In this document: piece after piece, positions 29,845-30,405 of the stretch
Layout: each line of letters begins with the position of its first letter
How positions within the stretch are numbered: position 1 is the first letter of the stretch
DNA from: a virus
Taxonomy: Duplodnaviria > Caudoviricetes
Strand: one strand, 5' to 3'
DNA length: 64,000 nucleotides
Virus record (IMG/VR): IMGVR_UViG_3300027971_004105
The notes under the pieces: generated by a model
Database searches by the model: none
What the model was told of the DNA's origin: nothing
What the model saw: only the letters and a program-made list of their open reading frames with translations
Translations under genes and position numbers: made by a program

Positions 29845-30405
29845 TCAGTTGAGTGGATCGCTGGGATCAAACTGCAGCACTGTGTGCCACAAATTTTTGT
29901 CCGCAGGTGCCGAAGGCACTGTGTACAAGGTGGTGCGAGGCCAAGATCTGGTTTGCAACACAGTGAGCACCTGAGCACTGTACACATGTATGCTGTCGGG
30001 TTCTGAACTCAACAATTTTTCAATGTTGTGGTGATTCAACACACTGCGATGAGTCTGAATCGCAGTGACTCTGGCATCTTCAGCAAAATTTCTAGCGTGG
30101 TGGTCGCCGTGCAACCACGTGGTGTTGGTGTGGATCGTCACGTCCTCAGCTTTGAGTCGGCAGCGTATGTGTTCAAAGCCACACAGTCTCAGACGTTCTG
30201 CTGTGTGACGTCCCACACACTGAATGGGCTGAGTGAGCAGATCTGTGATGGCATGCTGATAGTGTTGCAGTGCTGCTGTGTGTGTGATCAGCAAGGGTTG
30301 AACCACAGCAGGTTCATGTGCCACTGGTTCAGTGGTGATACAAGGCCACCAATGGGCCTGGTCCGGTATGGTGTGATTCACGTTTGACTGTGTGTACACT
30401 CTCAT
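29845..30405 (-). CDS. hemD: Uroporphyrinogen-III synthase-like protein (compact HemD)
   Basis: HemD-pattern blocks in the expected order: WPCITTEPV, LLITHTAAL (IFTSxNA), CVGRHTAERLRLCGF (VGxxTAxxLxxxGF), WLHG, PDSIHVYS and W.RTTLY..W...F.P. TAAATA lies 8 nt upstream. Confidence 0.7.
   Translation of the reverse strand: MRVYTQSNVNHTIPDQAHWWPCITTEPVAHEPAVVQPLLITHTAALQHYQHAITDLLTQPIQCVGRHTAERLRLCGFEHIRCRLKAEDVTIHTNTTWLHGDHHARNFAEDARVTAIQTHRSVLNHHNIEKLLSSEPDSIHVYSAQVLTVLQTRSWPRTTLYTVPSAPADKNLWHTVLQFDPSDPLN

Follow-up and report, generated by a model that had tools for sequence, protein, structure and literature searches.

HemD (uroporphyrinogen-III synthase, UroS) closes the first tetrapyrrole ring, by an accepted mechanism in which one ring is inverted through a spiro intermediate and for which the catalytic residues are not agreed. 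The locus studied here raises the question of whether a phage carries out this step with a protein of its own. Within a stretch of viral DNA of 64,000 nucleotides (IMG/VR record IMGVR_UViG_3300027971_004105, hereafter the window), a preliminary description had pointed to a 186-aa open reading frame (ORF) with HemD-type sequence blocks in order, and all of the peptides that it quoted are present in the minus-strand frame: CVGRHTAERLRLCGF at residues 63-77, IQTHRS at 116-121 and PDSIHVYS at 136-143, followed by the C-terminal blocks WPRTTLY (155-161) and WHTVLQFDP (173-181). The protein is indeed shorter than typical HemD, at 186 aa compared to 246 in E. coli and 231 positions in the Pfam model. 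The locations of this gene and of the other features discussed below are listed in Table 1.

Table 1. Locations of genes and motifs discussed in the text; positions given without a locus name are those of the window.
Feature	Location	Strand	Remarks
4,895-codon ORF	1184-15871	-	Single ORF in the structural region; a 1,138-codon ORF follows
Compact HemD (uroporphyrinogen-III synthase)-fold gene	29845..30405	-	ORF, ATG start, 186 aa plus stop
Ends of metatranscriptome contigs	30379-30389		Three runs; 16-26 nt inside the HemD-like ORF
TAAATA motif	30414..30419	-	T4-type late-promoter -10-like motif; 8 nt upstream of the ATG
TAAATA site, window	30406-30419	-	
TAAATA site, L204	L204:7050-7076		
TAAATA site, L159	L159:9975-10000		
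TAAATA site, L161	L161:9975-10000		
TAAATA site, L164	L164:555-577		
61-aa ORF	30477-30662	-	Between the gp26-like gene and the HemD-like gene
gp26-like baseplate hub gene	30701-31570	-	PF12322 (T4_baseplate), E 3.8e-11; upstream of the HemD-like gene and co-directional with it
hemB (porphobilinogen synthase, ALAD)	40823..41677	+	PF00490, E 2e-55, 188.6 bits (cut-off 24.6)
5-Aminolevulinate synthase gene (alaS)	L159:3195-4382	+	TIGR01821, 571 bits (cut-off 338.55); 5.6 kb from the HemD-like gene of that contig
clpS-hemO-bilin reductase operon	L204:8136-13650 (G073:C1:338135-343649)		About 2 kb from the 188-aa HemD-like ORF

The ORF is a real, conserved gene under purifying selection. About 25 full-length relatives, at 58-99% identity, were found in lake and other metagenomes, and the N-terminal start MRVYTQSN is kept among relatives. 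Pairwise comparison of the window's gene with six relatives gave dN/dS values of 0.22-0.34, which place this minus-strand frame under purifying selection. An exhaustive HMMER search of 1.84 billion representatives extended the family down to approximately 26% identity; nearly all of its members are 180-200 aa long, and they are unnamed in that collection. The family has been seen so far on phage-like contigs only. Neither similar DNA nor a credible protein match was present in 50,697 GenBank phage records, and a pattern scan of one genome per species across 185,579 species returned no relative. The name uroporphyrinogen-III synthase had already been assigned to two relatives by the JGI annotation pipeline.

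Single-sequence comparison with curated models left the protein below threshold: PF02602 (HEM4) scored 12.4 bits (E 0.088; cut-off 27.5) and NF006621 scored 18 bits (cut-off 223). Weak PF02602 matches were obtained for 18 of 24 family members, the best with an E-value of 7e-5. Profile-profile alignment was much more sensitive. When the family profile was aligned by hhalign to 30 true HemDs extracted from proteobacterial genomes, local mode returned a probability of 94.9% (E 4.8e-8) and global mode 90.3% over 205 columns. A family HMM built from a diverse alignment touched a single PDB sequence, the HemD of Helicobacter pylori (E 0.12); an HMM from a shallow alignment had produced a marginal match to a P450-like protein (E 1.2), which was rejected. 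Among the language-model neighbours of the protein, 91 of 100 belonged to HEM4 clusters. A proposed resemblance to Pelagibacter-type HemD found no support: we dropped an origin of this kind because the search of 1.84 billion representatives yielded no recognisable cellular HemD at E<=1e-3.

The predicted structure was decisive for the fold. AlphaFold2 supplied with close relatives alone gave an unusable model (pLDDT 52.6), so a diverse alignment was used instead and gave a model with pLDDT 93.6 and pTM 0.80. In a Foldseek search of the PDB with this model, the best 13 matches were all UroS structures (E 8.5e-6 to 7.8e-4), and a distinct gap separated them from the rest. VIA-align against 48,161 representative chains placed five UroS structures first, with Z scores of 13.0-11.1, rmsd values of 3.4-6.7 A and 177-186 of the 186 residues aligned; all remaining folds scored Z 6.9 or lower and covered one domain. 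The nearest solved structures are those of Shewanella amazonensis (3mw8), Helicobacter pylori (3p9z), human (1jr2), Pseudomonas aeruginosa (4es6) and Thermus thermophilus (3d8n). The two alpha/beta domains and the two-stranded hinge of UroS superpose on the full length of the modelled protein, and HEM4 clusters of the ESM Atlas matched it with TM values of up to 0.78. As modelled, then, the structure settles the HemD-fold identity of the 186-aa protein. The preliminary description had named a PF02602 or fold match as the test of its identification; the Pfam match stays sub-threshold and the fold match is unambiguous.

Alignment of the family profile to true HemDs also allowed the HemD signature to be mapped, with the reservation that the N-terminal part of this profile-profile alignment is unreliable. 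Conserved HemD columns fall on conserved phage residues at Pro21, Thr41, Gly65, Thr68, Ala69, Leu72, Gly76, Ser143 and Ser165. The approximately 60 residues by which the protein falls short of canonical HemD have not been lost as a single block: helices are trimmed throughout and several are gone. Three departures from the signature stand out. E. coli Ser60, which is 97% conserved in HemD, corresponds to His42 in the window's protein and to His in 92% of the family. The Gly-Arg pair at E. coli positions 137-138 aligns to no conserved phage residues, and a near-invariant Arg105 lies one position off. Finally, residue 119 aligns with E. coli Tyr158, a position occupied by Tyr in 29 of the 30 true HemDs and by Phe in the remaining one. 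Here the window's protein has His, as had been proposed from the IQTHRS block, and the family as a whole (26 members) has 22 Tyr, 3 His and 1 Phe. His119 is carried by the window's clade (P0001, P0002 and P0003) and, independently, by a distant member (P0039).

The conserved Tyr has been proposed to help remove the hydroxyl of hydroxymethylbilane, and mutagenesis in Anacystis nidulans pointed to its importance (Roessner 2002, as cited in PMC7242693). Because UroS sequences are hard to align and no essential residue has been recognised in them (PMC7242693), substitutions in the phage protein weigh little. Judged from the alignment, the Ser, Tyr and Gly-Arg differences would neither prove activity nor exclude it. 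Fold, profile-profile alignment, retained signature residues and the haem-gene context described below agree with one another in supporting a phage-encoded, compact, HemD-like protein, as first proposed.

The source of the window is a lake T4-like giant phage. Its T4-like gene set includes the gp55 late sigma factor, gp47/gp46 and a SegE-type GIY-YIG nuclease, and its portal is closest to those of the jumbo phages Atu_ph07, Phosso and CBB (approximately 49-54% identity). The SegE-type nuclease gene is followed by three genes on the minus strand, namely the HemD-like ORF, the 61-aa ORF and the gp26-type baseplate hub gene; beyond these lie the genes for a tape-measure-like protein of 724 aa, the portal protein, the prohead protease and the capsid protein gp23. 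L003-L005 and L161 repeat the order gp26, small ORF, HemD-like gene, SegE, gp46. In this phage lineage, seven independent contigs (L014, L015, L016, L018, L020, L022 and L023) stop 0.1-4 kb upstream of the HemD-like gene. Assembly thus breaks repeatedly close to gp26 and to the gene for the 724-aa tape-measure-like protein, which is the fastest-diverging neighbour (37-67% identity). The structural region also contains the two very long ORFs of 4,895 and 1,138 codons, which presumably encode giant fibre or decoration proteins.

The same genome carries a second gene of the pathway. A hemB gene lies directly after the gp23 major capsid gene, 10 kb from the HemD-like gene, and is likely its pathway partner. 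The encoded HemB, at 284 aa, is shorter than the 317-327-position models, its match begins at model position 18-22, and it scores 178 bits against NF006762, below the equivalog cut-off of 297. hemB and the HemD-like gene keep the same two slots in all related contigs that span both, of which there are five further examples (L156-L158, L205 and IMG/VR 3300017917_003509). The contigs that span both include IMG/VR contigs of 20 kb and 16.6 kb, two ENA scaffolds, a 199.6-kb JGI contig and a diverged relative; compared to the window, the HemD-like protein of this relative is 40% identical, its HemB 58%, its gp23 88% and its portal 84%. Related IMG/VR fragments that reach only the gp46-side flank gave no match to PF01379 (hemC, five fragments) or PF00490 (hemB), and the hemB-bearing IMG/VR fragments that lack the HemD-like gene likewise reach one flank only. 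For P0037, P0039 and P0031, the flanks are too short to inform a comparison of gene context.

Other phage lineages place the family closer still to tetrapyrrole metabolism. On an ENA contig with a different phage context (ERZ24794639 NODE_3515, here L159), a member 41% identical to the window's protein accompanies a bona fide 5-aminolevulinate synthase gene; other neighbours of that alaS gene encode a methyltransferase, DUF454 and YqgE/AlgH proteins, together with many small ORFs. The fullest context is provided by G073 (IMGVR_UViG_3300036770_003657), a T4-like genome (Gp23, 328 bits) of 399,796 bp that is rated 100% complete. Across ten of its loci (L191 and L196-L204), G073 encodes AlaS (558 bits), HemB (412), HemC, HemE (451), HemF (409), ferrochelatase (HemH, 390 bits), haem oxygenase and a ferredoxin-dependent bilin reductase. 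This virus therefore carries a nearly complete haem pathway, and the scatter of these genes over the whole genome argues against a contaminating host island. The G073 HemC shares no more than 59% identity with HemCs of betaproteobacteria, and the list of its homologues contained no contig of the window's lineage. A search of G073 for protoporphyrinogen oxidase (HemJ, HemY or HemG) found none. Next to the operon that contains clpS, hemO and the reductase gene stands a gene for full-length DnaK/Hsp70 (866 bits), and a gene for a Porin_4 outer-membrane porin lies close by.

PF02602 gives a single signal in G073, of 19 bits. The ORF in which it falls, of 188 aa, matches the profile of the compact family with an E-value of 1.3e-62, and its product shares 32% identity with the window's protein. 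By these searches, the compact protein is the only apparent HemD candidate in G073. Because this phage encodes the steps before and after UroS and no other HemD, the compact protein alone would fill the step. We regard the genomic context as the strongest argument about function, and it would favour an enzyme over a repurposed tetrapyrrole binder. With the compact HemD carried beside most of the haem-pathway genes, related phages probably run their own pigment and haem synthesis.

Our preferred answer to the opening question, which we hold to be rather probable, is that a minimal two-domain protein of HemD fold acts as the phage's own uroporphyrinogen-III synthase; its catalysis is deduced from fold and context. 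Phage HemB, together with phage or host HemC, would make hydroxymethylbilane from 5-aminolevulinate (ALA). The compact HemD would then bind this bilane in the interdomain cleft, which its two trimmed domains enclose, and ring closure would proceed via the spiro intermediate, with ring D inverted, to give uroporphyrinogen III. Hydroxymethylbilane cyclises chemically to isomer I within minutes (PMC13564367), and closure by the compact HemD would have to outpace this loss to a dead-end isomer. Because isomer I forms spontaneously, a phage that raises its output of ALA, porphobilinogen and hydroxymethylbilane needs matching UroS capacity. Uroporphyrinogen III would feed haem and then bilins, through phage HemO and bilin reductase; haem and these bilins are probably the end use. 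The wider proposal, which we consider about evenly poised, is that, in T4-like jumbo phages of fresh water, a virus-specific minimal UroS completes a route that starts from glycine and succinyl-CoA (or host ALA) and leads to haem and bilins, and that this UroS is made late from a leaderless or near-leaderless mRNA driven by TAAATA.

Several observations could instead be explained by a HemD fold that has lost catalysis. Such a protein would bind hydroxymethylbilane, uroporphyrinogen or another tetrapyrrole in order to sense it, to sequester it or to assist HemC in a hand-over, as HemD-like domains can in fusion proteins. The sub-threshold PF02602 score, His in place of Tyr119 in the window's phage, the family-wide replacement of the conserved HemD Ser by His and the unmatched Gly-Arg pair would all fit a binder of this kind, as would a dN/dS that is relaxed compared to typical enzymes and the faster evolution of the HemD-like protein than of HemB in the same pair of genomes (40% versus 58% identity). 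The substitutions count for little, however, in an enzyme that is notoriously poorly conserved and has no known essential residue (PMC7242693), and most of the signature positions that line the cleft are kept. A binder would also leave a catalytic hole in G073, in which all neighbouring steps are encoded and no other HemD is. On balance we find a non-catalytic role unlikely, and it is the alternative to which we give the most weight. An active family in which only the His119 clade is weakened or inactive, and persists as a near-neutral passenger, seems less likely again. The predominance of Tyr at this position, both in true HemDs and in the family, and the Anacystis nidulans mutagenesis cited above speak for it. 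Against it, intact copies of the His variant occur in three sequence clusters (85-100% identity), of which one comprises 110 sequences, the variant arose independently in the distant P0039, and dN/dS relative to Tyr-bearing relatives is 0.23-0.34; moreover, His could also act as a proton donor.

A quite different possibility is that the gene product is a late protein with a structural or assembly role in the baseplate hub module, and that its likeness to HemD reflects a shared alpha/beta fold and no more. The position of the gene in the window invites this reading: the gp26 hub gene and a small ORF lie immediately upstream of it on the same strand, and a late-promoter motif precedes it. However, the match extends over the whole two-domain HemD at Z 11-13, compared to Z <7 for generic single alpha/beta domains, and elsewhere the gene is found among non-structural genes, near alaS or the clpS-hemO-bilin reductase operon. 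The HemD-specific fold and the placement among metabolic genes in other lineages together make a baseplate role unlikely, and we consider it very improbable indeed.

When would such an enzyme be made? The TAAATA motif that had been reported 8 nt before the ATG is there, and the proposal of a late promoter gains support from its conservation and distribution, which are consistent with promoter function. TAAATA is invariant across 8 aligned upstream regions of relatives in which the flanking bases vary, and it lies 6-9 nt before the ATG in five lineages with varied gene contexts, whose proteins are 26-41% identical to the window's. Within the window, 14 of 34 genes, nearly all of them structural, have TAAATA on the same strand within <=80 nt upstream, compared to a chance expectation of approximately 2% per gene (34 copies in 128 kb). 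No copy precedes gp55, gp47, gp46, seg or hemB. The full T4 consensus TATAAATA is no commoner in the window than chance would have it, a simple scan of the window for sigma-70 promoters and terminators produced nothing decisive, and the HemD-like gene has no visible Shine-Dalgarno sequence. Judged from TAAATA, the HemD-like gene would be expressed late. If TAAATA serves as a late -10 element, transcription would start at or just before the ATG, which suggests a late mRNA that is leaderless or nearly so. The presence of the motif before the HemD-like gene and not before hemB means that the two may differ in their time of expression.

Lake metatranscriptomes offered a view of the phage in its habitat. 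Contigs from three runs hold pieces of the ORF with 0-2 mismatches; they show neither strand nor expression level. In these three runs the contigs end just inside the ORF (Table 1) and none crosses the ATG, a weak hint of a leaderless start. Metatranscriptome depth was 40-170 over the scaffold, protease and gp23 genes (window positions 36600-40200) and 0-12 over most other regions, including hemB and the HemD-like gene. Such uneven depth fits RNA better than carried-over DNA, and the phage appears to have been transcriptionally active in several lake samples of 2017-2018.

Compared to cellular HemD/UroS (PF02602, HEM4), the phage protein shares the two-domain alpha/beta architecture along its whole length (Z 13.0-11.1), the order of sequence blocks (T-x at the end of strand 1, TS-like, xVG..TA..L...G, RG, Tyr, xxS, S) and, in related phages, the pathway neighbours hemB, hemC, hemE and alaS. 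It differs in its length (186 residues versus approximately 230-260), in scores that lie below both the Pfam and NCBIfam cut-offs, and in the replacement of E. coli Ser60 by His in the family and of E. coli Tyr158 by His in the window's phage. Since the fold is that of HemD and the window's copy falls short of the curated thresholds and lacks the defining Tyr, we class it as a compact viral variant of HemD. If the assignment is true, a UroS of 186 aa would be among the smallest functional ones and would define the minimal catalytic core of the enzyme; if it is active, the tolerance of Tyr, His or Phe at the one position suspected of a catalytic role would offer a natural experiment of some use. 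Compact bacterial HEM4 proteins are similar in length (an ESM Atlas cluster of approximately 183 aa, 72% PF02602, mostly Bacteroidota) and have a language-model score of 0.93 to the phage protein. Their link to the phage family is by language-model features alone, and HMMER shows no cellular relative at E<=1e-3.

The other comparison is with the tetrapyrrole genes already known from phages, namely valaS, hemO, pcyA/pcyX and pebS (PMC11480375; bioRxiv 10.1101/2020.02.13.942896). vAlaS, the class to which the 5-aminolevulinate synthase gene on L159 belongs, has been shown to be functional (Wegner et al. 2024, PMC11480375); hemC and hemF have been mentioned in passing for pelagimyophages (Zaragoza-Solas et al. 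2020, PMC7029224); and what bilins do in phages whose hosts are not photosynthetic has yet to be explained (PMC11480375). In contrast, hemD and hemB in phages go unmentioned in these papers (PMC11480375; 10.1101/2020.02.13.942896; PMC7029224), and a literature search across 8.4 million full texts found no report of a phage hemD. Like the compact HemD family, the known genes belong to large freshwater and marine phages whose tetrapyrrole genes are scattered, and the clpS-hemO-bilin reductase operon and alaS share genomes with this family. The phage tetrapyrrole genes described so far represent the ends of the pathway, with ALA synthase first and haem oxygenase and bilin reductases last. A compact HemD would add the ring closure, linking the ALA-forming to the haem-consuming genes. 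Taken with the window's hemB and the G073 gene set, it points to some lake phages rebuilding most of the haem pathway and not merely tapping the haem of their hosts.
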